IMG/VR virus record: IMGVR_UViG_3300042311_001406
Span: 1 to 64,000 of that record
DNA length: 64,000 bases
Source of the DNA: a virus
Direction: 5' to 3' (one strand)
Part shown: positions 554 through 55,949 of the stretch, one piece after another
How the letters are laid out: each line of letters starts with the position of its first letter
How positions within the stretch are numbered: the stretch's first letter is position 1
Notes under the pieces: generated by a model
Told to the model about the DNA's origin: nothing
Database searches by the model: none
Seen by the model: only the letters and a program-made list of their open reading frames with translations
Program-made: the position numbers and the translations under genes

Positions 554-1219
554 TCAGCGCACGAACGAGAGGATGATGTCCTTCTCGATGTCGTTCGCAC
601 CCTTGAAAGATTCGAGCGTCGCCGCCTTGGCCACGACGTCGCTGGACACGAGCGCTTTCTCAGCAGCAACCTTGTCGAACTTGCTCAGCACTTCAGCGGT
701 CACCTTGCGACCGCCGACATCGACATGAGGCTTGGCGCCAAGGCTGGCGATCTTCTCGTTGTCGACGATGAGGAACACGGTGCTCACGGCGTTCGGAATG
801 ACAGCTCGCAGGCGTGGGCTGAAGACCTCTTCGTCGAAGGCGGCAATCTTCTCACAGAGCATGTCGAGCATGTCCCAGCGCAGCTTGTCGTTTTTCTCTT
901 CGGCGATGCGCATTCCGGCCGTCTTGAGGTGCTTGATGCGGTTCTCTTCGACGCGGTCACGAGCCTCGGTGAGGCGGACATCCATGAAAGCCTCGAAGTT
1001 TTCGCTCAGCTCGCGGCCAGCACGGCGGCGGATCTCCAGTGCGGCGCCACCGTCGATGTCGAACTGGTCGCAAGCACTGGCGATCTTGCGCATGCCGGAG
1101 AGCTGCTCGGCAACAGGAAGCCGATCCATCGTCAGGCGGAAGCGCTCAGCGCTCACCTTCGTGTGATCTCGGTCGGTGATCGGGAACAGGCTCTTGCTTT
1201 CCACCGCAAACGTATGCAT
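554..1219 (-). CDS. Hypothetical phage protein with five K-x-A motifs, possibly head-associated
   Basis: ORF 554..1273; likely start ATG 1219 after AGGAG; RKIAS, LKTAG, EKIAA, EKIAS, DKVAA. Confidence 0.75.
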   Translation of the reverse strand: MHTFAVESKSLFPITDRDHTKVSAERFRLTMDRLPVAEQLSGMRKIASACDQFDIDGGAALEIRRRAGRELSENFEAFMDVRLTEARDRVEENRIKHLKTAGMRIAEEKNDKLRWDMLDMLCEKIAAFDEEVFSPRLRAVIPNAVSTVFLIVDNEKIASLGAKPHVDVGGRKVTAEVLSKFDKVAAEKALVSSDVVAKAATLESFKGANDIEKDIILSFVR

Positions 1220-1364
1220 CTCGCGCTCCTGTGAATGTGCAGTGGAATGTACCACCGACGGCGTGACCAGCACAGCATGTAGCCTCCGCTGAAAATAATA
1301 ACAACACCCATCTTGCGGTTATTACGATCCGTGCTACCCGCTGAGCAGCAGAAGGAGGTCACAC

Positions 1365-21393: not shown

Positions 21394-24285
21394 ATGACGA
21401 TGACCGATGTCATTCGTGTTCGTGTCTGGATCGAAGGCGTCCTTCTGCCTGATGCTGCGTTTGGCGGCATCGACACAAACTCAGCGGCCAGGGGTGGCGC
21501 TGGCGCAACGTTGTCGATCCTCAACATTCCTGGCATGCGACCTGAGGAGTGGGGGCGCGCTCGCTGCGCCGTGGCGTGGAGCAACGTCGAGATCAGAAAG
21601 ACCCGAGGCGAAGACTGGCCGATGCTGTACGACGGAGAGATCGTCGCGTACGGCGACCACAAGAACCCGATGAGTCGCAGCGTCCAGTTTTCGCTCAACA
21701 GCGAGGACATTCACTTCGATCAGTGCCGTCTGTACTACTTCAATCGAGATACGGGAGCCAACGTCATCAACGTGCCGAAGACAGCGTACTTCTTCGGCAA
21801 CTCGTCGATCGAAGAGAGCATTGCGGCACCCGGTCTTGACACCGTCAATCGTCTCGTCGAAGCCATTCGTGCGCAGGGGAACGCCCCGCTGCCATCGAGC
21901 ATGCGCACGGCTTTCAAGGCAACGCTGAGCACGAACTTCTTCTTTGAGCGAGCTCGCCAGCAGCTTGGTCTCGATCGACGCTTCGGCGTGGCGAAGGATG
22001 ACTTCGCGGCTCTCTTGTACTCGAAGAGGGACCTGTTGTTCTCGCAACTGGAAAACGGCGTCGCCGTTCGCGAGGGCGACACGCCTATTCGACAGATCAT
22101 CGAAGAGATGCTCTCGAAGTTCCGCTACGGCCTGACGGTGAACCCGCAGCCAACCGTGATTCGTGGCGGCGACAAAACCGACTTGTCCCCCATCACCGAA
22201 CAGCGAAACCAGGCGCTCGCATCGGCCGAAGAGATCTGCATTCGCCTGCTGGGTGTTTCGCCTTCGATGGTGCCCATCACCGAGCGAACGACGGACGAAG
22301 AGATCAAGGTCATCGCGCTGAAGATTGCGCACCCCACGACCCGTGCGAACCTCTTCCCGGCTGCAGACCTCAGCCTCGAAGGCGTCAGCCTGCTCAGCGA
22401 TCCGGCGACCAGCACCGGCGACATCCAGAGCTACATGGATGAGATTGGCCCCAGCATCATCGAGTCGTTGAAGCTGATTCGCAGCGAGCTGTTGCGCGCC
22501 GCAAGCACAGCGACGACACGAGCTGCCGTCGAGGTGATGGACGAGGACGCAGACTTCAGGGATTACGTCGCTCAGTTCATGCTGCTGCCAGACATGCAGC
22601 TGGCGGCGATCCCTCGTTGCAATGTGATCTTTCCGAACGAGAACAGCAGCTACAGCACCAGCAGGAACTTTCTGCAGGAGCCGACGCGCACCATGAAGTC
22701 GGTGCCCACCGTCAATGGCGCCTCGGATGAAGTCTACTTCGCTCCTGGCAATCTCTCGACGACTGCCGTCAAGAAGACACCGGTCACGACGTACACCGGC
22801 AACTTCTCCATGTGCCCGCCTGTGCTTGTAGCTGGCGGCATCAGCAAAGTGATGGGGAGCAAGTTCGGGAACCGACAGGACCCACTCAACAGCACGGAGA
22901 CCAAGCTCAAGGCTCACAGGGGCATCGACCTCCGCGTTCCCAAGAGAACGCCAGTGCTCTCGGTGCTGGATGGCACCGTCATGTCGTCCCAGCTCGACAA
23001 GCCAAAGGCTGGTGGCCTGTACGTGGTGATCCAGCATGTCGGGAACGACTATACGAAGTACATGCACCTGCTCTCGTCTTCAGTGAAGCCTGGAGACACG
23101 GTCAAGGCTGGCCAGCAGATCGGATTCAGCGGTGGTGATCCAGCCGACGGGCTCAGCGCTGGCGGCAGCACTGGTCCACATCTTCACTTCGAGCTGCACC
23201 GCGGTAGCCGGTCGAATCCGGTGAACCCGGCCGACTTCCTGTTCAAGTGCCAAGACGCGTTCGACAAGAGCGTTGGCAGCGGCAGCGTGTTGGCGACGTC
23301 GTCGGCAGCCACGGAGATCGCGGCCGTTGACGAAGAAAATGCGCAGACGATGGCTGACGGCATCAACAACACCAGCGAGAAGCCGTTCGCTGATTTCGAG
23401 TTCCTGACGCCCGCAGAAGAGGTCCTTGGCATCGTTCCGAACATCGACACGTCGATGGATCGAACCATGACCACGTACTCCGTGCAGGGTGGAGAAGATG
23501 GCCGGAAGAAATACCTGCAGCAGCTGGTGGAAGCCGATCATCAGTCAGCCAGGTACAGTAGCCGAAGCTTTTCGCCGGTGACGATGCCGTTCACGCCGCG
23601 ACTCGTCGCAGGAATGCCCGGTCTCATCGTCGACAACTTTCGACCCGTGATCGTGTTCATCGAGTCGGTGCATCACTCCTATAACCCAGCTGGCGAGGCA
23701 ACGACGACGGCGTCGGTGCGCGGCTACCGGTTCTGGGACGAGGGCGACCCGTACTACTGGCGCGGCGGCAGGGAAGCATTCAAGGAGGCAACCAAGGATC
23801 AGGATGGCGTCAAACAGCCGGACCCTGACGTCGCCAACTTCCCTGGGTTCATGCTGCCCTCCATCTTCGCGACCAACAGCTACGAAGGTCCGCCTGAGAC
23901 CAGCAATGAACCGTTTGGCGGCAAGAACCAGGCACGTCCGAACGATGCGTTCTTTGAGTCGATGATCGGGTGCAAGGGGCTGCCGTACTACTACACGGAG
24001 CGCCAGAGCCCCATCACCGGCGAGACCTTGTCGTACAACGCCTTCATTGGCCACCTCGTGAACTACTACCGGGCGCTGGTTGACACCAGCCACGAGGCTG
24101 CCTCTGGTTTTGTGGACAGTTTCACCTCTCGCTCGTCAATGCACGTCGACGAATACTTCCTGCAGCTCCTCAAATGCCAACCGGGCGCAGGCGGCTACAA
24201 CGGACCCGCATTCCGTGCAACAATCAGGGCCGTCGTTTTGGACTACGTGGCCAAGGTCAGCTCGTCGCACGCATTCAGAGGGTGA
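21394..24285 (+). CDS. Baseplate hub-like protein with inserted M23 (LytM) peptidoglycan endopeptidase
   Basis: HRGID (HxxxD), TKYMHL, VKPGDTVKAGQQIG, STGPHLHFE (HxH), PVNP. Confidence 0.85.
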   Translation: MTMTDVIRVRVWIEGVLLPDAAFGGIDTNSAARGGAGATLSILNIPGMRPEEWGRARCAVAWSNVEIRKTRGEDWPMLYDGEIVAYGDHKNPMSRSVQFSLNSEDIHFDQCRLYYFNRDTGANVINVPKTAYFFGNSSIEESIAAPGLDTVNRLVEAIRAQGNAPLPSSMRTAFKATLSTNFFFERARQQLGLDRRFGVAKDDFAALLYSKRDLLFSQLENGVAVREGDTPIRQIIEEMLSKFRYGLTVNPQPTVIRGGDKTDLSPITEQRNQALASAEEICIRLLGVSPSMVPITERTTDEEIKVIALKIAHPTTRANLFPAADLSLEGVSLLSDPATSTGDIQSYMDEIGPSIIESLKLIRSELLRAASTATTRAAVEVMDEDADFRDYVAQFMLLPDMQLAAIPRCNVIFPNENSSYSTSRNFLQEPTRTMKSVPTVNGASDEVYFAPGNLSTTAVKKTPVTTYTGNFSMCPPVLVAGGISKVMGSKFGNRQDPLNSTETKLKAHRGIDLRVPKRTPVLSVLDGTVMSSQLDKPKAGGLYVVIQHVGNDYTKYMHLLSSSVKPGDTVKAGQQIGFSGGDPADGLSAGGSTGPHLHFELHRGSRSNPVNPADFLFKCQDAFDKSVGSGSVLATSSAATEIAAVDEENAQTMADGINNTSEKPFADFEFLTPAEEVLGIVPNIDTSMDRTMTTYSVQGGEDGRKKYLQQLVEADHQSARYSSRSFSPVTMPFTPRLVAGMPGLIVDNFRPVIVFIESVHHSYNPAGEATTTASVRGYRFWDEGDPYYWRGGREAFKEATKDQDGVKQPDPDVANFPGFMLPSIFATNSYEGPPETSNEPFGGKNQARPNDAFFESMIGCKGLPYYYTERQSPITGETLSYNAFIGHLVNYYRALVDTSHEAASGFVDSFTSRSSMHVDEYFLQLLKCQPGAGGYNGPAFRATIRAVVLDYVAKVSSSHAFRG

Positions 24286-43454: not shown

Positions 43455-43904
43455 ATGGCTGACGACGTCAACATTCCAGATGCAAGCGATGTCCCCACTC
43501 CGATCGCTACTGATGAGGTGGCTGCTCGGCATCATCAGCTCGTCAAAATGGAGTTTGGTGAGGACGGCGTGGCTACGCCTGTCAGCGCAGCCAACCCGAT
43601 GCCGACCACGCTGTTCGGCGAGGTCGTTGAGCAGCTGTCGGCGATCCGCATGCTGCTGCAGTCGATGATGAAAGCAAGCATGGGCTCCCTCCCCGACGTC
43701 GCAGGCCGCATGCGCGTCAACGTCGAAACAGGATCAGTGGGTGTGAGTTCACTGCCAACGCTTGGCACGGTGACGACCGTGACGACGGTTGCATCCCAAA
43801 CGAACCAGGTGAACATCGGCGGCCTTCCGGCCATCGAACAGATCCCATCCCTTATGCGCCTTGGCGCTGACTCGCTGCGCCGAAACATCACGGTGACACC
43901 ATGA
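43455..43904 (+). CDS. Hypothetical virion/fibre-associated protein
   Basis: AAGGAGG SD; IATDEV...HHQLVK...VSAANPMP. Confidence 0.7.
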   Translation: MADDVNIPDASDVPTPIATDEVAARHHQLVKMEFGEDGVATPVSAANPMPTTLFGEVVEQLSAIRMLLQSMMKASMGSLPDVAGRMRVNVETGSVGVSSLPTLGTVTTVTTVASQTNQVNIGGLPAIEQIPSLMRLGADSLRRNITVTP

Positions 43905-45340
43905 CCACCACGAATGGCAATCGACCGATTTTGGATCTCAAGCGCTGGGAGTTCTGCGCGCCAGCGCCAGTAGCGTCCGCTGCTGGATCGTTTATCATGT
44001 CATCACGACACCACCGACAGCGTCAGCTGTACATCGTCAATGCGACGACGCACTACCTCTACATGCCGGAAGAAGATGGTTGGGTGCAGATTCCCAGCGG
44101 CGCGCTCGCGGGAACATTTGCGGCTGGTGCCTGCGGAACAGGCACAGCTGTTGGCCCATCAGGCACTGCAACAGTCGCGTCGACGACGTCGACGATCGTC
44201 AGCAACTTGAACCTGCAGCGCGATCTCCGTGGCTACTCGTTGTTTGTGACGGGCGGCCCCAACGCGGGCGCAACGCTGAAGATCCTGAGCAACACGATTG
44301 GCGCCAACAGCGTGATCACGGTGGCCACACAAGGCACAGCGTTCAACGCTAGCACCACGTTCCGCTTGTTCACGCCTCGGTGGTACGTTCTCAACGCCAT
44401 CACGGCATCAGGAACCACCACCGCGAACGTGTTCAAAATCTACGACCTGGCAACCAACACTTGGTCCGCCGCAGAAACAGGCGCAACTGACGGCGTTGCT
44501 CCAGCTGCAGTCATCGGCACCGATGGAAAGCTGATCGCTACGCCATCATGGGTTGACGATGACTACGTGTCGTTCGCGACAGGGACCGCCACTGCAGGTG
44601 CGACCAGCACGTTGACGTTCGGCAGCGCAAACTGGGCTGTCAACCAGTGGGCCAACTCACAAGTCCGCATCTCGGCAGGCACAGGCGCTGGTCAGATTCG
44701 CAGCATCACTGCCAATACAGCAACCGTGTTGACGGTAGCAGCGCCTTGGACCACTCCGCCAGATGGAACGTCGGTGTTCTCGATCGAAGGGAATGACGAC
44801 TACATCTATTACACCGGATCTGGTGCCACCGCAGTCTTTCGATATTCGATTTTGTCGGGTGCTTGGCAGTCGATGACTGCTCGTGGCGGTGCACCTGGGG
44901 CCGGCATGTCTGGTCATTGGATCTATGAGGTCGATGATCCGGCGTGGAACCTTCCAAATGCCATTTTGAATGGTCGGTACATCTACTCGTTCCGCGGCGC
45001 CAACGGCGCTGTGCTGGATCGGTACGACATTGCCGCCAATACCTGGACGACGTTGTCGTATGCGCCTGCTGCAGAGTTGATCAACACAGGCGCTAAGCAC
45101 GTCTACCGAAAAAACTTCATCTACACCCAGCAGCTCAACACGGGTCGATGGTTGGTGTTCAACATCGTCACCAGCGGACAAAACGGCTTTTCCACGATGA
45201 TGTACACTCAGGGAGCCGCAGTCGTTGGCGACACAGCCTTCGATGTACACTACCGAGACGGCACAACTCAGATCGACTATGTGTACATGCTGTTGAACAC
45301 GTCGACGGTTTTGCTGCGGTGCATGATCATCAACGACTGA
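43901..45340 (+). CDS. Kelch/beta-propeller-like fibre protein
   Basis: YDLATNTWS, YIYSFRG...RYDIAANTWTTL Kelch-like blades. Confidence 0.65.
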   Translation: MTTTNGNRPILDLKRWEFCAPAPVASAAGSFIMSSRHHRQRQLYIVNATTHYLYMPEEDGWVQIPSGALAGTFAAGACGTGTAVGPSGTATVASTTSTIVSNLNLQRDLRGYSLFVTGGPNAGATLKILSNTIGANSVITVATQGTAFNASTTFRLFTPRWYVLNAITASGTTTANVFKIYDLATNTWSAAETGATDGVAPAAVIGTDGKLIATPSWVDDDYVSFATGTATAGATSTLTFGSANWAVNQWANSQVRISAGTGAGQIRSITANTATVLTVAAPWTTPPDGTSVFSIEGNDDYIYYTGSGATAVFRYSILSGAWQSMTARGGAPGAGMSGHWIYEVDDPAWNLPNAILNGRYIYSFRGANGAVLDRYDIAANTWTTLSYAPAAELINTGAKHVYRKNFIYTQQLNTGRWLVFNIVTSGQNGFSTMMYTQGAAVVGDTAFDVHYRDGTTQIDYVYMLLNTSTVLLRCMIIND

Positions 45341-45356
45341 TCTGTGAGGTGACGTC

Positions 45357-46955
45357 GTGACACTGCTGCTCCTGCTGTCAGGGCGAAGGGCGAGTGCCGC
45401 CAGCGGTGTTACCGGCACTGGCGCCATCACGCTTGGCATCAACGAGACGGGTGTTGGCTCACCTGTCATCGTCGCCACTGGTGGTGCCGGCAGCTTGGGT
45501 GTGGTGGTGGCTGGCGCTGGCACCGCTGGCGCTGCCCCCATCACCGGCACTGGCTCTATCGCCCTTGGCTTTGCCGAGGCTGGTGCTGGCGCTCCAGTTG
45601 TCACAGGCGCTGGCACTGGTGTCTTGGGTCTCACCGAGACTGGTACTGGTAGCAGCACGGTTACAGGCGCTGGTACTGGTGCCCTTGGCATCACTGAGGC
45701 TGGTGCTGGCGCTCCAGTTGTTACTGGCTCTGGTGCCATCGCCATGGGCCTCGCCGAAGCTGGTGCCGGCAGCAGCACGGTCACAGGCGTAGGCGCAGTC
45801 ACGACGATTAGCTTGACGCCTGCGGCAGCGGGGTCGCCGGTTGTCGCAGGTTCTGGCGCCATTGCCCTGGGGACAACGGTCTCAGGCGTCGGTGGTTCCT
45901 CGACAGCCGGGGCTGGCGCGATTTCCTTGGGGATCGCGGTCGCTGGTGCAGGAAACAGCACGGTCGTCGGCACGGGCGCCATTGCGCTTTCGATCACACC
46001 TGCTGGCGTTGGACGCCCAATCGGCACTGGCACTGGTGCCATCGCGATCGGCCTATCACAGGCGGCAGCGGGATCGCCCGTCGTCAAAGGCGATGGTGCC
46101 GCCACCGTCGTCGGCATCACGCCGACCGGCTCTGGCCGTCCCATCGTCACCGGCGCTGGGTCCATTGGACTTGGTCTCGCCGTCAGCGGTGCCGGAGCAC
46201 AAGCATCAGCAGCCAGTGGCGCCGTCACTCTGGGCGTCACGCCAGCCGGCGCTGGCTCGTCGGTGGTCACCGGTGCCGCAACAGCTCAGACCATTGGTCT
46301 CGCGGCTGCTGGCGCTGGCGCTCCGGTTCAGCGCGGTACTGGCAGCAGCGTCATTGGCTTCAGCGCCAGCGGCACCGCCTCCGTCATCGTCGCCGGCAGC
46401 GGCGGCCCCAGTGTTGGCCTCGCGGTTGCCGCCAGCGGAACCGTCGTTGTTCCCGGCACAGCCGCCATCCCCGTCGGCCTGTCGTCGACAGGCATCGGCG
46501 GCATGGTTGTCGTCGGCACAGCTGCCGGCAGCATGGGCCTGTCGTCGACTGGTTCAGGCGCGCCAGTCCTCCAGGGCAGTGCTGCATCTACTGTCGGCGC
46601 ACTGACTTCCAACGGCGCAGGTAGCCCCGTCGTCAACGGTCAAGGATCGGCTGGCACTGACTTCTCTGTTTCTGGCGTCGGTGATCCAGTTGTCTCTGGC
46701 AGCAGCCAGGTCACTGTTGAGCTGTCGTCATCTGGCGACGTCAACATCACCATCCTGGGCGACGGGAACACTGTCGTAGGATTTGAGGCCACAGGCGAAG
46801 GTCGTGTCCTCAATACGACGTACTTTGGAATCATTCTCGGATCGATTGAGGATTTGAGCGTTCTCTCTTGCTCCATCTCCGACGAAAGAGAAGAGATCTT
46901 CGCGACCGTCGACAACGATGCCACCGTCATCGCGACATCAATCGAAATGCTGTAG
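45357..46955 (+). CDS. Gly/Ala/Thr-rich 20-aa-repeat fibre/shaft protein
   Basis: About 20 or more repeats like TGSGAIAMGLAEAGAGSSTV. Confidence 0.75.
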   Translation: MTLLLLLSGRRASAASGVTGTGAITLGINETGVGSPVIVATGGAGSLGVVVAGAGTAGAAPITGTGSIALGFAEAGAGAPVVTGAGTGVLGLTETGTGSSTVTGAGTGALGITEAGAGAPVVTGSGAIAMGLAEAGAGSSTVTGVGAVTTISLTPAAAGSPVVAGSGAIALGTTVSGVGGSSTAGAGAISLGIAVAGAGNSTVVGTGAIALSITPAGVGRPIGTGTGAIAIGLSQAAAGSPVVKGDGAATVVGITPTGSGRPIVTGAGSIGLGLAVSGAGAQASAASGAVTLGVTPAGAGSSVVTGAATAQTIGLAAAGAGAPVQRGTGSSVIGFSASGTASVIVAGSGGPSVGLAVAASGTVVVPGTAAIPVGLSSTGIGGMVVVGTAAGSMGLSSTGSGAPVLQGSAASTVGALTSNGAGSPVVNGQGSAGTDFSVSGVGDPVVSGSSQVTVELSSSGDVNITILGDGNTVVGFEATGEGRVLNTTYFGIILGSIEDLSVLSCSISDEREEIFATVDNDATVIATSIEML

Positions 46956-48593: not shown

Positions 48594-50300
48594 ATGCCAT
48601 TCCGATCAGAGCAGCAGCGTCGTCTCTTCTACGCCCTCCGACGGAAAGGCGAGATGAGCCAGCACACCATCGACAAGTGGAACGAAGAGACCAAGCAGAA
48701 GCAGGACGGGAAGCCGCTGCCACGCCGTGTGAAGCAGGCCGCCGCTGCGCTGGTTCCGCCTGAGGAAGTTCGAGCCGCCGCACGCCGCGGACTCGCTGCA
48801 CGCCGAGCGGCCCCGCAGAGTCAGCGTGGCGGCCTCACCGCCAGCCAGGCGAGTGCCCAGGGCATTGGCAGCGGTGTGGTGCGCGCACAGACCCTGGCCA
48901 GCGGCCGTGGCGTCAGCCCCGAAACCGTGAAGCGCATGCACTCGTTCTTCAGCCGCCACCGGAAGAACAAAGACACGCCACGTGGACGCATCGCCTGGGA
49001 CCTCTGGGGTGGCGACCCCGGCGCCCGCTGGGCCGCCAGCCAGGTCGCTGCCATGAAGTCCTCCACCACCACCTCCTCAGCCAAGAGCCACGCCATGAAG
49101 ACCACGAAGACTGCCGCCAGCATGGAGCAGACGTTGCAGGGCGCCATCAGTGGCGCGATCGGCGGCGCCCTGATTGGCAGCCGTCGCAGCTTGGACGACG
49201 CTGTTGTCCGCGGCATGGTGCAGGGCGCCGTGACCGGAGCACTGGCTGGCGGCGCTGCGGCACAAGCCACACGTGACCAGCGCGCCCACTTTGGTGCCGG
49301 TGTCGTCGGCGGCTACCTCGGCAGCCGGGGGCCGCGCGGCGAGAGCCGGCCGCAAGTGCACGTCCGCATGGACCGCCACAACACAGGAACACCGGAGAGC
49401 TTTGTGACCGAAAAGCACGCTGCAGCATCTGAGCTTCGTCGTCGCCACCACGTGAAGCTGGCCGACGCCATGGCACGTGCAGTTCAATCAGGTAAGCTTC
49501 GCTCATTGGCGAATGCGGCATCGTCGATCAACAACAAAAGTCCTCACCCTGTCCTGCGTGGTGGAACAGTTCTGAGCGGTCTTGAGGCAATGAAGTATTA
49601 CCCAAGAGGGTCCAATGCTTACAACGGACAAGATGTTCGCCTTATGCGGCTGGCGCTGAAGAAATCACGAGATGCAAAATCTGCCGCTTCTGCCGATCGT
49701 AGACAGTACCTCCGGGAGGCTCTTGAGCGAAATCTCCGGAAGAAAACAAATACCACCATCACGCATGGATCTGTGAAGCTCGCCGAGGGCAATTTTGGCC
49801 ATGGCGCCGAACTCGCGGGTCTGGCAATGCTGGCGGCCCCCAGCATTCAGCACTTCCGCAAGAAGCCCATGAGCGATCGCACCAGCCACAAGATCAACGC
49901 CGCAGGCCTGGCCGTGCTCGCCGCTCCGAGCCTGTTGGAGCTGGCGAAGCGCCACAAGAAGACGGCTGCCACCAAAGATGACGGCCAGACGCAGAAGCGC
50001 CTTGGCATCGGAGCAGCTCTTGCTGGCACTGGTTTGCAAATCGCGCATAATTACAAGCATCGAAACAACCGACACATGAATTACCTGAACCCAGTGAACC
50101 TTGCAGGGCATGTGATCCAAGCTGCCGGTTGGGCTGCTTACGCCAACGGAAAACAGAAATCACAAAAGAAGACCGCTGCCGAACGCCGAACCCCCGCCGA
50201 AGTCGAAGCGCGCCGCAAAGCTCGCATCGCACAGGCTCGCGCCAACACCAAGAAGCGCCCGTCATCGGATGATGATTGTGGCGACCATGAGTACCGATGA
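48594..50300 (+). CDS. Basic modular protein punctuated by K-x-A motifs (putative processed head cargo polyprotein)
   Basis: Unrelated modules separated by VKQA, TKTA, EKHA, VKLA, VKLA, KKTA, KKTA; includes TVKRMHSFFSRH...RIAWDLWGGD. Confidence 0.7.
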   Translation: MPFRSEQQRRLFYALRRKGEMSQHTIDKWNEETKQKQDGKPLPRRVKQAAAALVPPEEVRAAARRGLAARRAAPQSQRGGLTASQASAQGIGSGVVRAQTLASGRGVSPETVKRMHSFFSRHRKNKDTPRGRIAWDLWGGDPGARWAASQVAAMKSSTTTSSAKSHAMKTTKTAASMEQTLQGAISGAIGGALIGSRRSLDDAVVRGMVQGAVTGALAGGAAAQATRDQRAHFGAGVVGGYLGSRGPRGESRPQVHVRMDRHNTGTPESFVTEKHAAASELRRRHHVKLADAMARAVQSGKLRSLANAASSINNKSPHPVLRGGTVLSGLEAMKYYPRGSNAYNGQDVRLMRLALKKSRDAKSAASADRRQYLREALERNLRKKTNTTITHGSVKLAEGNFGHGAELAGLAMLAAPSIQHFRKKPMSDRTSHKINAAGLAVLAAPSLLELAKRHKKTAATKDDGQTQKRLGIGAALAGTGLQIAHNYKHRNNRHMNYLNPVNLAGHVIQAAGWAAYANGKQKSQKKTAAERRTPAEVEARRKARIAQARANTKKRPSSDDDCGDHEYR

Positions 50301-50518
50301 TCAACATGTTCAAGAAAGCCTGGTCGTGGATCGTCATCTTCTACCAGACCGCTGTCTTCCTTCGTGACCGCAACACGGAAGCTCGCCTGCGCTCTGCGCG
50401 TGAGCTCGACGACACCAACCCAGACCTGAAGACGAGGATCGACCATGAAGCCACAACCGAGCCTGGGGCGCATGCTGTTGGCGACGTCCGGCATGTTGGT
50501 CGAGAAGACAGCGTCTGA
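50297..50518 (+). CDS. Small hypothetical protein
   Basis: ATGA overlap with upstream stop; overlaps next ORF by 74 nt. Confidence 0.45.
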   Translation: MINMFKKAWSWIVIFYQTAVFLRDRNTEARLRSARELDDTNPDLKTRIDHEATTEPGAHAVGDVRHVGREDSV

Positions 50519-51461
50519 CGACGAGAGCTGCTGTCCAGAGTGCAAGCGAAGCATCGCCGTGGCCAAGCGGCGGGCTCGTGCGAAAGCTGCACATCGAGAT
50601 GCTCGACGCACCTGGACCAAGACCGCGGCGGCTGTGCAGGACTACGCGGCGAAGGCCACGGCCAGCGTTCAACGCCAGTTGACCGCGCGGTTCTCCAAGA
50701 TGAACCGGAACCCAGCCACTAGCCGACTGCCGGTGGCGCGGCCACCAGCCGTCGCTGCGCCCTCGCCCATGAACATGACGCGCAGCATGAGGCCAATGCG
50801 GCCGCCTCAGCCCGCTGCCATGTCGTCGATGGTGAAGCGTGCAGGTTCCATCCTGGCGCCATCTGTCGCTGGGCCACAGCCATGCATTGAAGGATGGGGA
50901 AGTGCAGCGAGTTCGGCGCTGCGAAAGCGCGTTGATGCGCTCAAGAAGAAACTGAAACCGGGAGACATCATCTCCACAGATCCGCGGCGTCCCGTTGGAG
51001 TGCATCGCGCTTTCAAAGCGTTGAGCTCGACGGTGCAAGGCACACGTTTTGGCCACTCGGCAATGTACGTTGGCAACGGCGCCATCGTTGAATCGCGAGA
51101 CACGGCCGTCATCAAGCGACCGCTGCTTGATCTTGCGCGCTGCAACGAATTCGTCGTGCATCGTGTTGAGAATGCTTCGCCGACGCAGCGTCAACGTGCC
51201 GCGGCATGGATGAAGAAGCAGGTCGGCAAAGAAGGCGTCCGCACGACCGTTGGACATCTTGCGTACCGAGGCGCAAGACCAACGGCGCTAGCCGGGAAAC
51301 ACGAAGGAAAAAGGCAGAAGCTTGACCGCATCATCTGCAGTTCGCTCATCGCCAACGCGTACTCGCGCGTGCCCTTCAATCCAGACCGCGCAATCCTCAA
51401 CCACAGACCGAATGACATCGCCAACAGCGAACATGTCACACCTGTGGCTCAGATGACTTGA
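50445..51461 (+). CDS. Permuted papain-like NlpC/P60 (YaeF/YiiX, C92) enzyme with K-x-A-containing N-terminal region
   Basis: LKPGDII, FGHSAMYVGNG..VE, ICSSLIANAY (His before Cys). Confidence 0.8.
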   Translation: MKPQPSLGRMLLATSGMLVEKTASDDESCCPECKRSIAVAKRRARAKAAHRDARRTWTKTAAAVQDYAAKATASVQRQLTARFSKMNRNPATSRLPVARPPAVAAPSPMNMTRSMRPMRPPQPAAMSSMVKRAGSILAPSVAGPQPCIEGWGSAASSALRKRVDALKKKLKPGDIISTDPRRPVGVHRAFKALSSTVQGTRFGHSAMYVGNGAIVESRDTAVIKRPLLDLARCNEFVVHRVENASPTQRQRAAAWMKKQVGKEGVRTTVGHLAYRGARPTALAGKHEGKRQKLDRIICSSLIANAYSRVPFNPDRAILNHRPNDIANSEHVTPVAQMT

Positions 51462-51540: not shown

Positions 51541-52251
51541 ATGCGGAACAAGTACAGGAAGGATGTCTTCGTCGTTGCCGTGGAAGGCATCATCGGAGCA
51601 GGAAAGACCACGCTCACCAAGCGCTTGCGCGATGAGCTTCATCTGCATGAAGTGCCGGAGCCGGTTGAAGACAACCCGTTCCTCGAAAACTTCTACAAGG
51701 ACCAAAAGAAGTGGGCCTTCCCCATGCAGATGTGGATGGTGCAGCGTCGAGCGGAGTCGATTGCTGACGCCGTCGAAAGTCACAAGAACATCATCACGGA
51801 CCGCAGCCTGGTGGGAGACATGGTCTTCGCCAAGATGCACAAAGACAACGGAAACATCGACGCCGAGATGTGGCCCGTCTACCGCGACACCTGGAGCATG
51901 ATGAACCGCTTGCTGGCACCCGTGCCAGACGTCATCGTCTTCCTGGATGTGAACCCCAGCACCGCGTTCAAACGCATGCACAACCGAGGGAGACAGTCCG
52001 AAGTCGACGGCGTCACACTGTCGTATCTTCAGGATCTCTGTGCCACATACCGCTCCACCATCGAGAAGTTGGGTAGCAACTTCAACGGGACGGAGTCATT
52101 CCGTCATACGCGCATCGAATGCCTCAAAGGAGACACTGATCACGCCGTGATCGTCGACATCGTCAAGCGACACATGGCCAACAAGACCGCCGCTTTCTCG
52201 AACGCCGCCGCCGCCAACGAGTACAACAACGACAACGAGGTCAAGCTGTGA
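51541..52251 (+). CDS. Deoxynucleoside kinase
   Basis: VEGIIGAGKTT P-loop, EPV...L..FY.D, DRS, PDVIVFLD, RGR..E. Confidence 0.9.
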   Translation: MRNKYRKDVFVVAVEGIIGAGKTTLTKRLRDELHLHEVPEPVEDNPFLENFYKDQKKWAFPMQMWMVQRRAESIADAVESHKNIITDRSLVGDMVFAKMHKDNGNIDAEMWPVYRDTWSMMNRLLAPVPDVIVFLDVNPSTAFKRMHNRGRQSEVDGVTLSYLQDLCATYRSTIEKLGSNFNGTESFRHTRIECLKGDTDHAVIVDIVKRHMANKTAAFSNAAAANEYNNDNEVKL

Positions 52252-55200
52252 AGAACACCGTCACGATTCCATCCGCCGACTCCATCGACTACACGCTGAG
52301 CATTGCCGGCGACAAGATCGAGTGCAGGGTCCATAGCATCGACATCGTCAACTTCAACAAGCGTGACGTCGCCATCGAAGGCAGCGGCTTCAAGCAGAAG
52401 GATGTCGAGGCTCCTGACTTCTGGAGCGACACGGCCGTCCGCATCGTCGCCAACAAGTATTTCCGCGGCCACGACAGCGATCGCGAGAACAGCGTCAAGC
52501 AGCTGGTTGCTCGTGTCGTCGGCTCAATCGTCGACTTCCTCGACAGCAAGGACCGTTTCGCCAGCGCCACCGACAAGCACAGCTTCAAAAGTGTCCTGAC
52601 CCATCTGCTCTACGTGCAAGCGTTCGCGTTCAACAGCCCGGTGTGGTTCAACCTCGGCACCGAAGTCAGCCCGCAGTGCAGCGCTTGCTTCATCCTCGGC
52701 GTCGACGACAACATCGAATCCATCCTCAAGTGGATCAACGACGAAAGCCTCGTCTTCCGTCGTGGCAGCGGTGCCGGCGTCAACATCTCCCGCATCCGCC
52801 ACAAGAACGCGCGTCTGCAGGGCGGCGGCCACGCCAGCGGCCCGCTGAGCTTCGCCAACGGCGCCAACTACATGGCCGGCGCCATCAAGAGCGGCGGCAA
52901 GACGCGTCGCGCGGCCAAGATGCTGGTCATGAACGACAACCACCCCGACGTCTTCGACTTCATCGACACGAAGTCGATTGCCGAGCGCGTCGCCAAGGCG
53001 CTGATCGCTGGTGGCTTCAGCTCGAAGTTCAATGCCGAAGGCGGCGCCTACGAGCTCGCCCCCTGGCAGAACGCCAACAACAGCGTGAGCCTGTACGACC
53101 GCTTCCTCAATGCCGTCTTGGTCGACGGAGACCATGACCTCGTTGACCACAAGGGCGCTGTGGTTCGCACCATCAAGGCTCGCGAGCTGTGGCGCAAGAT
53201 GGGTGAGGCAGCCTGGGAATCCGGTGACCCCGGCCTCCACTTCCGTGACACGATGAACCGCTTCAACACGGTCGCAGAAGATGGCGAGATTGAAGCCAGT
53301 AACCCGTGCTGCTTCACCGGCGAGACGCTCGTCGACACCAGCGAAGGAAAGATCCGCATCGACGAACTCGTCGCTCGAAGCCAGCGCGGTGAGGACCTGC
53401 CAATGGCATGGGCCTTTGACCTTGAATCGTCGCTGCCTGTCTTGCGCCGCATCGTCAAAGCCTGGAAGGCCGGCGACGCGACCAAGCTTGTCCGCGTCAC
53501 GACGGACCGCGGCATCAGTGTGTTGTGCACACCTGAGCACCGCTGGCTGAAGCGCAATGGCGCTTGGGTGGAGGCTCAGCATCTGAAAGCTGGGGACAGC
53601 CTGCGCAAAACGGCGCGCTGGGTGAACAAGGATCGCTCTGGTCGCCACTGCTTGAACATGCGTGGCACAGAGTCAGCGCCAAACGGAACCGTCTGGCAGA
53701 ACCGATACATGTGGGAGCAGGCCTATGGACCAATTCCTGACGGCATGGAAGTTCACCACAAAAACGGAGACCCGACTGACGACCGCCTCAGCAACTTTGA
53801 GCTGATCCCTGTCAGCGATCATCGCTCTGAACACTCGGCTGGCGACGAGAACCCACGTTTCATTGACGTGGAAGATCATGTGCTTGTGGAGGCGTGGGAT
53901 GCTGTCGCTGCCGGCAGAAAGCGTGGTTCCGGTGTGACGCCAACAACATGGAACGCACACATCAACAGCAATGGGCTCAAAGGACATCTGCCGTTGGCTG
54001 CATCACCAACGAACGGAGGGCGAATCCAAGGCATGCCTTGGGCGGAGTTCGAGAGCAAGATCAACGAGCTGCGTTCATCTGTGAACGATCGCGTCGTCAG
54101 CGTCGAGTTCATTGCCAACGACACGGCGACATCCGTCTTCGACATCGAAGTTGAAGGCGTGCACAACTTCTCGGTGACCAGCCCCGGCGCTGTTCATTCG
54201 GTCGTGGTGCACAACAGCGAGTACCTGTTCATCAACAACACCAGCTGCAACCTCGCGAGCTTCAACCTCGTGCGGTACATGATCCGTGACGGTCTCAAGC
54301 GCGTGTTCAACTGGCGCGCATTCCAGCGTGACGGCTTGGCGATGTACCTGTGTCTCGACGCCATCGTCGACATCAGCAGCTACCCGACGCCAGAGATCGA
54401 CGAGACGACCCGCAAGTACCGCACGCTTGGTGCCGGGTACGCCAACATTGGCGGCATGCTGATGCGTATGGGCATTCCGTACGACAGCGACGAAGGCCGT
54501 CACATGATCGCCGTCATCACCAGCGCGCTCCAGGGCACCATGGTCTGCAACAGCATGAAAGCTGCTGAGGCCTGGGGCACATTCGATCGCTACGAAGCGA
54601 ACCGTGATCACGTCGACAAGGTGATTCTGTCGCACTACAACGCACAGGTCGGGCTGACCTACAACAAAGACGACGTGGTGTGGAATCCGTGGCAGCACTA
54701 CGAGCAGACTGTCCTGCGAGACAACACGAAGATCGCGCGTGTGCGCAACGCGCAGTTCACGGTCGTGGCGCCCACTGGCACCATCGGCTTCATGATGGAC
54801 GTCGACACGACGGGCATCGAGCCAGACTTCAGCCTGGTGAAGTACAAGGAGATGGTTGGCGGCGGCTACATGACGCTGGTCAACACCGCGATGTCCGAAG
54901 GCCTCGAAGTGCTGGGCTACGATGAGGAGACGCGCAAAGCCATTGAGGCGCACGTCACAACCACTGGCGGTGTCGTCGAAGGCGCTCCCGGTCTGAAGCC
55001 AGAGCACTACGGCGTCTTCGACTGCGCGGTCGCAGCGTTCGGCGGCACACGCTTCATTCGCCCTGAGGCGCACATTGAGGCCATGGCCGAGGCGCAGCCG
55101 TTCCTCAGCGGCGCCATCAGCAAGACCGTCAACATGCCAGAGTCGTCGACGGTGGATGACATCCTCGACATCTACATGAAGTCGTGGAAGCTGGGTCTCA

Positions 55201-55949
55201 AAGCTGTTGCCGTCTACCGCGACAACTGCAAGCAGAGCCAGCCGCTCAGCACCTCGAAGACGACGGACAAGGGCAGCGCCACCGTCATCCTTGAGTCGGC
55301 TCCAGCGACGTCGATGTCTTACGACGACATGACGATCTGCAAGTTGGAAGCGCAGATCAAAGACCTGAAGTCGATCATTGGCAGCCTGCGACGTGGAGAG
55401 CGTGAGCGCCTGTCGACGTCGCACATGGGCCACATCCACAAATTCACCATTCAGGGGATGAGTGGCCACTTGACGGTCGGCTTCTACGACGATGGCCGCA
55501 TCGGCGAAGTCTTCGTCGAGATGAGCAAGGAAGGCAGCACCGTCGGTGGCTTCCTGGACGCCTGGAGCAAGGCATTCTCGCTCATGCTGCAGTACGGCGC
55601 TCCGCTGACTGAAGTCCTGCAGAAGTTCGAGGGCAGCCGCTTCGAGCCATCTGGCTTCACGCTCAACGAGAACATCCGCACCTGCACATCGGTGATCGAC
55701 TACGTCAGCCGCTACATGAAGATGCTGAGCTCAAGCGCACCGAAGGCGGCTCCGATGCTCGACAGTGCCCCTGGCGACCATCAGGTTGAGGAAGGTGAAG
55801 ACGTCGACGATTCGCACGTCCCGTCAAACACGCAGAAGTTCGTCGACACCAATGGTCGCATCTGTTCGTCATGCGGAAGCAGCAACCTGCGTCAAAGCGG
55901 CGCCTGCTTCGTTTGCAATGAGTGTGGCTCAAGCACGGGGTGTGGCTGA
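52248..55949 (+). CDS. nrdJ: Class II (B12-dependent) ribonucleotide reductase, intein-containing
   Basis: FNSPVWFN, QCSACFI, SGGKTRRAAKM, NPC|SE, CNLAS, APTGTI, SGAISKTVN, C-terminal Zn ribbon CxxCG...CxxC..CG. Confidence 0.95.
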   Translation: MKNTVTIPSADSIDYTLSIAGDKIECRVHSIDIVNFNKRDVAIEGSGFKQKDVEAPDFWSDTAVRIVANKYFRGHDSDRENSVKQLVARVVGSIVDFLDSKDRFASATDKHSFKSVLTHLLYVQAFAFNSPVWFNLGTEVSPQCSACFILGVDDNIESILKWINDESLVFRRGSGAGVNISRIRHKNARLQGGGHASGPLSFANGANYMAGAIKSGGKTRRAAKMLVMNDNHPDVFDFIDTKSIAERVAKALIAGGFSSKFNAEGGAYELAPWQNANNSVSLYDRFLNAVLVDGDHDLVDHKGAVVRTIKARELWRKMGEAAWESGDPGLHFRDTMNRFNTVAEDGEIEASNPCCFTGETLVDTSEGKIRIDELVARSQRGEDLPMAWAFDLESSLPVLRRIVKAWKAGDATKLVRVTTDRGISVLCTPEHRWLKRNGAWVEAQHLKAGDSLRKTARWVNKDRSGRHCLNMRGTESAPNGTVWQNRYMWEQAYGPIPDGMEVHHKNGDPTDDRLSNFELIPVSDHRSEHSAGDENPRFIDVEDHVLVEAWDAVAAGRKRGSGVTPTTWNAHINSNGLKGHLPLAASPTNGGRIQGMPWAEFESKINELRSSVNDRVVSVEFIANDTATSVFDIEVEGVHNFSVTSPGAVHSVVVHNSEYLFINNTSCNLASFNLVRYMIRDGLKRVFNWRAFQRDGLAMYLCLDAIVDISSYPTPEIDETTRKYRTLGAGYANIGGMLMRMGIPYDSDEGRHMIAVITSALQGTMVCNSMKAAEAWGTFDRYEANRDHVDKVILSHYNAQVGLTYNKDDVVWNPWQHYEQTVLRDNTKIARVRNAQFTVVAPTGTIGFMMDVDTTGIEPDFSLVKYKEMVGGGYMTLVNTAMSEGLEVLGYDEETRKAIEAHVTTTGGVVEGAPGLKPEHYGVFDCAVAAFGGTRFIRPEAHIEAMAEAQPFLSGAISKTVNMPESSTVDDILDIYMKSWKLGLKAVAVYRDNCKQSQPLSTSKTTDKGSATVILESAPATSMSYDDMTICKLEAQIKDLKSIIGSLRRGERERLSTSHMGHIHKFTIQGMSGHLTVGFYDDGRIGEVFVEMSKEGSTVGGFLDAWSKAFSLMLQYGAPLTEVLQKFEGSRFEPSGFTLNENIRTCTSVIDYVSRYMKMLSSSAPKAAPMLDSAPGDHQVEEGEDVDDSHVPSNTQKFVDTNGRICSSCGSSNLRQSGACFVCNECGSSTGCG
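53310..54215 (+). mobile_element. Intein (302 aa) with HNH homing endonuclease
   Basis: Starts CFTGET, block B CTPEHRW, ends VVVHN before S; internal GPIPDGMEVHHKNGDPTDDRLSNFEL. Confidence 0.92.

Follow-up and report, generated by a model that had tools for sequence, protein, structure and literature searches.

A K-x-A motif shared by a candidate prohead protease, head proteins and a modular polyprotein points to processed capsid cargo in a divergent tailed phage

Results and discussion

The IMG/VR virus record IMGVR_UViG_3300042311_001406 is a single contig of 91,322 bp, of which we consider the first 64 kb (64,000 nucleotides, hereafter the window) together with genes on the remainder. Two neighbouring open reading frames (ORFs) of this window, encoding a strongly basic protein of 568 residues and a putative amidase of the C92 type, contain repeated copies of the short motif K-x-A. 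We propose that the motif is a cleavage tag and that a candidate prohead protease of 530 residues, encoded beyond the window, would cut after its alanine, a rule that we hold to be likely. The full statement, namely that the phage packages within its capsid a polyprotein and a pro-amidase, both cut after alanine by the prohead protease, is the account we somewhat favour. Its basis consists of motif statistics, positional conservation, fold similarity and the swapping of modules at the sites, from which we infer cutting, packaging, ejection and the roles of the pieces. The original prediction for this region had already described a head-protease signal and a jointed polyprotein. The motif is indeed found in the scaffold, in the linker of the protease, in further head proteins, at the N-terminus of the major capsid protein (MCP) and at the points where modules are swapped, while the cut itself stays a prediction. 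The three principal genes are:

48594..50300, plus strand: basic polyprotein of 568 residues (isoelectric point, pI, 11.2; net charge +58) with eight K-x-A sites
50445..51461, plus strand: putative permuted NlpC/P60-type (C92/YiiX-like) amidase of 338 residues, with a 133-residue N-terminal extension that holds three K-x-A sites
Genome positions 84840-86432, beyond the window: candidate prohead protease of 530 residues, consisting of a gp21/assemblin fold and a helical scaffold-like C-domain

Modules of the polyprotein and their K-x-A sites

The start codon of the polyprotein at 48594 is backed by an N-terminus that is conserved in the relatives P0005-P0011. The lysines of the eight K-x-A copies are residues 47, 172, 274, 288, 362, 395, 456 and 526, and the residue next to each copy is A, D or E; the seven sites listed originally are all present, and the copy at residues 362-364 adds an eighth. 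The extended pattern K-x-A-[ASDEG] occurs 8 times where 2.5 are expected from shuffles of the whole protein (p 0.0045), and shuffling within local windows of 25 residues again gives 8 versus 2.5 (p 0.003). None of the control patterns A-x-K, R-x-A, E-x-A, K-A and K-x-[SG] is enriched in the polyprotein. The modules described at the outset (a leader, a RIAWDLWGGD domain, a glycine-zipper block, a basic block and two A/L/G-rich hairpins) are real, and the chain, all on the plus strand, reads:

48594..48740, plus strand: module 1, N-terminal leader ending in K-Q-A (residues 1-49), common to P0005-P0008, P0010 and P0011 and always followed by the K-x-A site
48741..49115, plus strand: module 2, RIAWDLWGGD domain (residues 50-174; phrog_2859, E 9e-14)
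49116..49421, plus strand: module 3, glycine-zipper block (residues 175-276), the family's most conserved core with 30 invariant residues in alignment A1
49422..49463, plus strand: spacer peptide of 14 residues between two sites (residues 277-290)
49464..49784, plus strand: low-GC cassette of two basic sub-modules of 74 and 33 residues (residues 291-397), with a V-K-L-A site at each end
49785..49967, plus strand: conserved double A/L/G-rich hairpin module ending in K-K-T-A (residues 398-458)
49968..50177, plus strand: second low-GC cassette, a hydrophobic hairpin (residues 459-528), with a K-K-T-A site at each end
50178..50297, plus strand: C-terminal tail of 40 residues

Module 1 is a candidate capsid-targeting peptide: like leaders of the T4 type, it is short, conserved (residues 1-49, in six relatives) and terminated by the site. 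The original suggestion that K-x-A serves as a packaging signal is better replaced, K-x-A reading as a cutting tag and the conserved leader being the better candidate for targeting. All pieces of the polyprotein are basic (pI 9.6-12), and a Pfam scan of the ORF returns no family and no identifiable enzyme among them. The hydrophobicity of the glycine-zipper and hairpin modules is only moderate; relatives have weak Gly-zipper Pfam matches, residues 175-276 give weak structural leads to membrane hairpins, and the corresponding Atlas leads are too weak to use. Since the modules are all strongly basic and contain no recognisable enzyme, DNA-associated internal head proteins and membrane-active ejection peptides are equally likely roles for them, and the earlier designation as effectors is unsupported.

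The domain of module 2 is widespread in phages. In Synechococcus phage S-CBS4 it makes up a head-module gene by itself, in Vibrio phages it is one part of such a gene, and elsewhere it is fused to HK97-type protease-capsid proteins, NUDIX and pyrophosphatase domains; in Atlas models it is fused to portals and to S78 and Mu-like proteases. The fusions to portals, proteases and capsid proteins argue for a place inside the head.

Exchange of modules among relatives

Fifteen relatives carry the modules of the polyprotein in other orders or combinations, with the tag ending each module, and some have NUDIX or pyrophosphatase modules. Together the relatives contain 57 sites, compared with 29.8 expected. 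In alignment A1, K-x-A stands immediately upstream of the glycine-zipper block in all 8 aligned relatives that reach upstream of the block, and the ORF of P0014 begins at the residue right after the alanine, exactly at the boundary of this block. Seven relatives have K-x-A or K-x-G 4-7 residues ahead of the conserved start of the double hairpin. P0002, the closest relative, shares 98% identity over residues 1-291, lacks residues 292-394, is 100% identical again from residue 395 to the site at 456-458 and then continues with other modules; all three breakpoints coincide with K-x-A sites. Overall, 21% of local-alignment ends fall at most 3 residues from a site, compared with 9.6% for random positions, a value that exceeds all 500 random draws. 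The motifs thus lie at homology boundaries in relatives, as had been proposed, and coincide with the points at which modules are swapped. A profile search with alignment A1 yields two weak loci in viral contigs and none in genome contigs; blastn of the region finds no match in phage records.

The first cassette (residues 291-397) has a GC content of 0.52-0.54 and a GC content at third codon positions (GC3) of 0.46-0.55, the neighbouring modules a GC3 of about 0.8; the second cassette (residues 459-528) has a GC content of 0.52 and a GC3 of 0.54. The two low-GC cassettes look like recent imports. The tag-encoding codon stretches that flank the first cassette are identical at 13 of 14 nucleotides and those flanking the second at 14 of 15. 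In a search for repeats at the joints no long DNA repeats are found; only these 14-15-nucleotide codon stretches match, which may reflect the same peptide combined with codon bias. The eight sites are encoded with different synonymous codons and their middle residue is variable, hence selection acts on the peptide.

The near-identical stretches flanking the cassettes, and the richness of the proteins in K and A, are what one would see if the tag were a mere recombination joint or a by-product of K/A-rich linker composition. This explanation is largely refuted and has very little probability left: against local-window shuffles, which keep the composition, the count still stands at 8 versus 2.5, neither A-x-K nor R-x-A shows enrichment, both the middle residue and the choice of synonymous codons are variable, and the tag also occurs in non-modular proteins, for example at the N-terminus of the MCP.

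K-x-A as a proteome-wide signal

An unbiased scan of all tripeptides and gapped pairs covers 70 predicted proteins. KTA is the most over-represented tripeptide (29 occurrences versus 9.1 expected, z 6.9), and K.A is the top gapped pair of the proteome (198 versus 142). The excess over composition-matched shuffles on which the original prediction was made to depend is therefore present both in the polyprotein and genome-wide, where KTA ranks first. Seven proteins hold all of the excess (44 sites versus 13.9); the other 64 proteins show none (47 versus 46.3), and control patterns are flat. The seven are the polyprotein, the C92 ORF, the 512-residue protein, the 530-residue candidate protease, an acidic scaffold-like protein of 359 residues, and proteins of 125 and 239 residues. 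Five of them are encoded by head-module genes that are consecutive or nearly so, the gene for the 239-residue protein adjoining the head module on the circular map:

554..1273, minus strand: acidic protein of 239 residues with five K-x-A sites versus 0.74 expected (p 0.0005), next to the head module on the circular map

From its site count and position this protein is a probable further substrate in the head core. Sites in N-terminal leaders are mildly in excess across the proteome (11 proteins versus 5.5 expected). K-x-A also occurs within the first 27 residues of a 790-residue protein (genome 79058-81430, minus strand) and of a Pro/Ala-rich 223-residue protein (89569-90240, plus strand), which are possible further leader-bearing head proteins. 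The MCP (phrog_2522) is 24% identical to the MCP of Salmonella phage Arash, and the N-terminal K-x-A of both proteins is in register, which answers in the affirmative the earlier question of a site at the capsid propeptide.

The candidate prohead protease

The head module occupies genome positions 83250-90723, beyond the window, in the order 512-residue protein, protease, acidic 359-residue protein, 125-residue protein, 148-residue protein and MCP; the same order is found in Arash gp220-gp226. An AF2 model of the 530-residue protein, built from 54 homologues, consists of a confident N-domain (pLDDT mostly >85), a disordered linker (residues 236-300) and a helical C-domain. In a structure comparison with VIA-align, the N-domain (residues 21-240) matches best T4 gp21 (5jbl_B; Z 9.5, root-mean-square deviation 3.2, 141 residues), followed by a run of herpesvirus proteases (Z 8.2-5.5), eight entries of which lie at Z 8.2-5.8. 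Foldseek alone gives a weak result with this model (E 0.1). By sequence the family is unannotated: there is no Pfam match at E 0.01, including S77, S78, U35 and S21, PDB searches with the protein and with its profile return nothing meaningful and no similarity to gp21, and the only PHROGs match is phrog_2774, of unknown function. A profile search recovers 4,637 cluster representatives at 50% identity (2,378 at E <=1e-30); the search of viral contigs with the single sequence returns nothing. In two homologues of about 900 residues, P0057 and P0076, the protease gene includes Pfam domains of inteins and homing endonucleases.

Proteases with the gp21/assemblin fold have a catalytic His and Ser that are conserved and lie about 50-55 residues apart; in the 54 homologues here, His112 and Ser165 are invariant. 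So are, amid variable sequence, K36-x-A38 and K241-V-A243, and K285-x-A287 is nearly invariant; the sites at 241 and 285 lie within the disordered linker (pLDDT <50). A further site, K463-x-A465, is present in 47-50 of the 54 homologues, about 65 residues from the C-terminus. Among 140 representatives of the family K.A is the top gapped pair (1353 versus 593), and the logo of the tag is [MLF]-[EQT]-K-[TVI]-A, then S, then E or A.

The enrichment also extends to the neighbours of the protease gene. For ORFs around 80 protease homologues from IMG/VR, the ratio of observed to expected motifs, taken by distance from the protease start, is 4.5 at 0-2 kb, 3.5 at 2-4 kb, 2.9 just upstream and about 1.0 at 8-10 kb in both directions; for each of three control patterns it remains at about 1 at all distances. 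Cultured phages with the protease N-domain are Salmonella phage Arash, Vibrio phages D69, D148 and D181, and Bacillus phage G. Arash gp220, gp223 and gp225 have 9, 7 and 6 sites with about 1 expected in each, and gp19 and the portal of phage G are K-x-A-enriched as well. The signal had initially been taken as special to one lineage; instead, the rule accompanies a very large protease family that includes cultured phages.

Both the enzyme-substrate link and the catalytic residues of the 530-residue protein are inferred, which leaves room for a host enzyme or a second phage protease as the one that cuts the tag. We regard this as very unlikely: the enrichment is centred on the gene of this type of protease at 80 independent loci, the tag is invariant within the protease chain itself, and phages of Salmonella, Bacillus and Vibrio show this rule too, their hosts having no obvious shared protease of such a kind.

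The putative C92 amidase

The sites of the C92 ORF are at K21, K59 and K131 (codons at 50505, 50619 and 50835), and its ATG is preceded by GAGGA at a distance of 7 nucleotides. PF05708 matches the protein with E 1.6e-5 and 25.4 bits (just short of the cut-off of 27) over 74 residues, and precomputed Pfam assignments give PF05708 for the shorter gene call P0128 as well as for P0139 and P0140. His204 and Cys298 are invariant in 13 C92 sequences, in the permuted order of His before Cys. All three sites claimed ahead of the catalytic domain are present, and the third is conserved: in alignment A3, 11 of 12 homologues have a K-x-A, mostly before Ser, some 25 residues upstream of the catalytic core. 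The N-terminal extensions of the homologues range from 0 to about 130 residues, the long one being common to P0129. P0139 is a longer chain in which tags flank the C92 domain as one module and which also carries DUF5661, itself a module of the polyprotein relative P0011. Homologues of the polyprotein and of the C92 protein are found on contigs of equal size in five cases.

The polyprotein and C92 ORFs share a reading frame; a read-through fusion of both is ruled out by a second stop at 50427-50429. Between them lies an ORF of 73 residues (window 50297-50518, plus strand) with a hydrophobic N-terminus, which has an ATGA overlap with the polyprotein stop and overlaps the first 74 nucleotides of the C92 ORF; it may encode a small membrane protein, or else be a shadow ORF.

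Some C92 homologues start just 2-3 residues upstream of the tag, as might be expected if K-x-A were an uncut docking tag for the protease, the scaffold or the interior of the shell that marks assembly partners. Such a tag predicts the same enrichment and conservation as cleavage does. We consider docking quite unlikely, given that the P0014 ORF starts at the residue after the alanine, that tags stand in the disordered linker right after the protease domain and near the C-terminus, as the R and M sites of herpesviruses do, and that eight copies in one small protein would have no obvious use.

Genome context

The phage is tailed and highly divergent, with a genome of about 60% GC and nearly all genes on the plus strand. 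Large virion and tail genes occupy window positions 1-47 kb, and the polyprotein and C92 ORFs are the last genes of this structural block; downstream of 51.4 kb follow a deoxynucleoside kinase, an intein-bearing ribonucleotide reductase and replication genes. A virion protein of 963 residues (window 21394-24285, plus strand) contains an M23-type metallopeptidase domain at residues ~480-620, which makes it a probable tail-associated cell-wall lysin. Just upstream of the polyprotein (window 43901-46955, plus strand) are a Kelch-repeat protein of 479 residues and a repetitive Gly/Ala/Thr/Ser-rich protein of 532 residues, both probable fibre or decoration proteins. The ribonucleotide reductase (1233 residues; window 52248-55949, plus strand) includes an intein with an HNH-type endonuclease segment, as seen in the translation.

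The location at the end of the late structural block, after tail-fibre-like genes, would also suit a lysis or membrane-attack cassette, consisting of holin-like zipper and hairpin peptides and a C92 endolysin, whose tags would be cut outside the capsid if they are cut. NlpC/P60-type enzymes often serve as endolysins, PHROG scans turned up no other canonical endolysin, the hydrophobic 73-residue ORF lies between the two genes, and residues 175-276 give weak Gly-zipper or holin-like structural leads. A lysis cassette is nonetheless unlikely in our view. It leaves unexplained why the same tag occurs in the scaffold, in the protease linker and at the MCP N-terminus; prohead proteases with the gp21/assemblin fold, such as T4 gp21 and assemblin, act inside proheads; module 2 is head-associated, being fused elsewhere to portals, proteases and capsid proteins; and the modules are all strongly basic with only moderate hydrophobicity.

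Proposed processing of the cargo

We therefore return to processing by the prohead protease as the preferred reading. The 530-residue protease would cut after the alanine of hydrophobic-x-Lys-x-Ala, with Ser, Ala, Gly, Glu or Asp as the usual next residue. The polyprotein would be made late and enter the prohead, probably by means of its N-terminal leader or by charge attraction to the acidic scaffold, so that the protease-scaffold fusion, the scaffold and the cargo co-assemble before cutting begins. Cleavage at the eight joints would then release about nine basic pieces of 14-125 residues, and the C92 amidase, packaged as a pro-enzyme, would be trimmed at the conserved site ahead of its core. 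Acidic scaffold fragments would leave the head; the basic pieces and the trimmed amidase would stay with the DNA and probably be ejected into the host.

Several points weigh against this reading. That K-x-A is cut is a prediction from sequence and modelled structure, here as well as in the relatives. The placement of sites between folded domains rests on homology boundaries only, and the catalytic role of His112 and Ser165 is deduced from how well they are conserved and how far apart they lie rather than by superposing individual residues. The seven enriched proteins were chosen after the counts had been seen; the unbiased scan and the comparative tests are independent of this choice. The count of sites in the C92 ORF, which the original prediction had included in its case, is not significant alone (3 versus 1.1-1.5 expected, p 0.1-0.2), and in short C92 homologues, which start 2-3 residues upstream of the site, there would be almost nothing to remove, unless their starts are miscalled. 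The polyprotein is encoded about 33 kb from the head module and downstream of tail-fibre genes, a place where lysis genes are often found. Finally, the paper on the Arash virion does not analyse cleavage, and early enzymes are among the 116 proteins that it lists as 'structural', which makes the list too broad to discriminate.

Relation to known systems

The processing of cargo by head proteases and the polyvalent proteins of phages are already known (PMC5694885, PMC10052503, PMC5512222). The searched literature yielded no description of a K-x-A rule for a phage protease, of a herpes-like cut after Ala in phages, or of tiny modules swapped at a cleavage tag.

The closest parallel for the fold is the prohead core of T4, whose protease gp21 (5jbl, MEROPS S77) is the best match to the N-domain (Z 9.5). 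As in T4 with IPI-III, Alt and the gp67/gp68 peptides, the candidate substrates are the scaffold, the capsid N-terminus and basic internal proteins, and a short N-terminal leader ends at a protease site; the T4 products stay in the head with the DNA. The T4 enzyme cuts after Glu in (L/I)-x-E, whereas the predicted cut here is after Ala in K-x-A, and the T4 cargo is encoded by single genes rather than by a chain of about nine modules.

The closest parallel for layout and specificity is herpesvirus assemblin/pUL26 (MEROPS S21), in which, as in the 530-residue protein with its putative sites, the protease domain is followed by a linker that holds a release site and by a scaffold part, with a maturation site close to the C-terminus. 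Both sites of pUL26 are cut after Ala, usually before Ser (PMC4498786). The herpesvirus sites are V/L/Y-x-A without Lys at P3, in contrast to K-x-A; the hosts are eukaryotic and no cargo polyproteins are known.

In phages phiKZ (gp175) and SPN3US (gp245), one head protease processes many packaged proteins at a short motif and the products are ejected (PMC5694885, PMC10052503). The present system differs in that the motif there is (S/A/G)-x-E, the protease is gp21-like by sequence and the cargo consists of large separate proteins.

Polyvalent proteins combine unrelated modules in one polypeptide encoded by late genes and are predicted to be packaged and delivered (Iyer et al. 2017; PMC5512222). 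The 568-residue ORF resembles them in the mosaic order of modules among relatives and in its late, virion-associated context at the end of the structural block. It differs from them in that its modules are tiny, basic and unannotated and its joints match the tag of the capsid protease; polyvalent proteins have enzymatic conflict domains and their processing is ascribed to a zincin-like peptidase within the chain (PMC5512222). Of the conflict-related domains that define them (at least two that are recognisable, for example MuF, zincin-like peptidase, ART or nucleases), the Pfam scan of the 568-residue ORF recovers none.

A short tag common to the ends of all modules allows any one of them to be acquired, dropped or exchanged there while the others stay unharmed, a pattern that the relatives display. 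A tentative extension, which we rate as possible but rather doubtful, is that the protease tag doubles as a universal joint: the group would trade small cargo cassettes at cleavage-site codons and so build fast-changing sets of injected basic or membrane-active mini-proteins, a herpesvirus-like rule of cutting after Ala would hold group-wide, and mature virion proteomes would be predictable.

If the proposed rule is true, K-x-A is cut after its Ala by a very large group of phage head proteases that lack annotation (4,637 clusters at 50% identity). These enzymes would then resemble herpesvirus assemblin and depart from the cut-after-Glu rule that all studied phages with the gp21 fold follow. 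The rule is directly testable in the cultured phages Arash, G and Vibrio D69, D148 and D181, and alignment A2 could serve to build a curated family for this protease, which has no Pfam model. Under the rule, sequence would suffice to predict the mature forms of capsid, scaffold and cargo proteins for thousands of uncultured phages, and foreign peptides could be loaded into capsids in a defined way. The rule would also add a functional link between the maturation of phages and that of herpesviruses, and the polyprotein shows how such a tag makes cargo modular and exchangeable.

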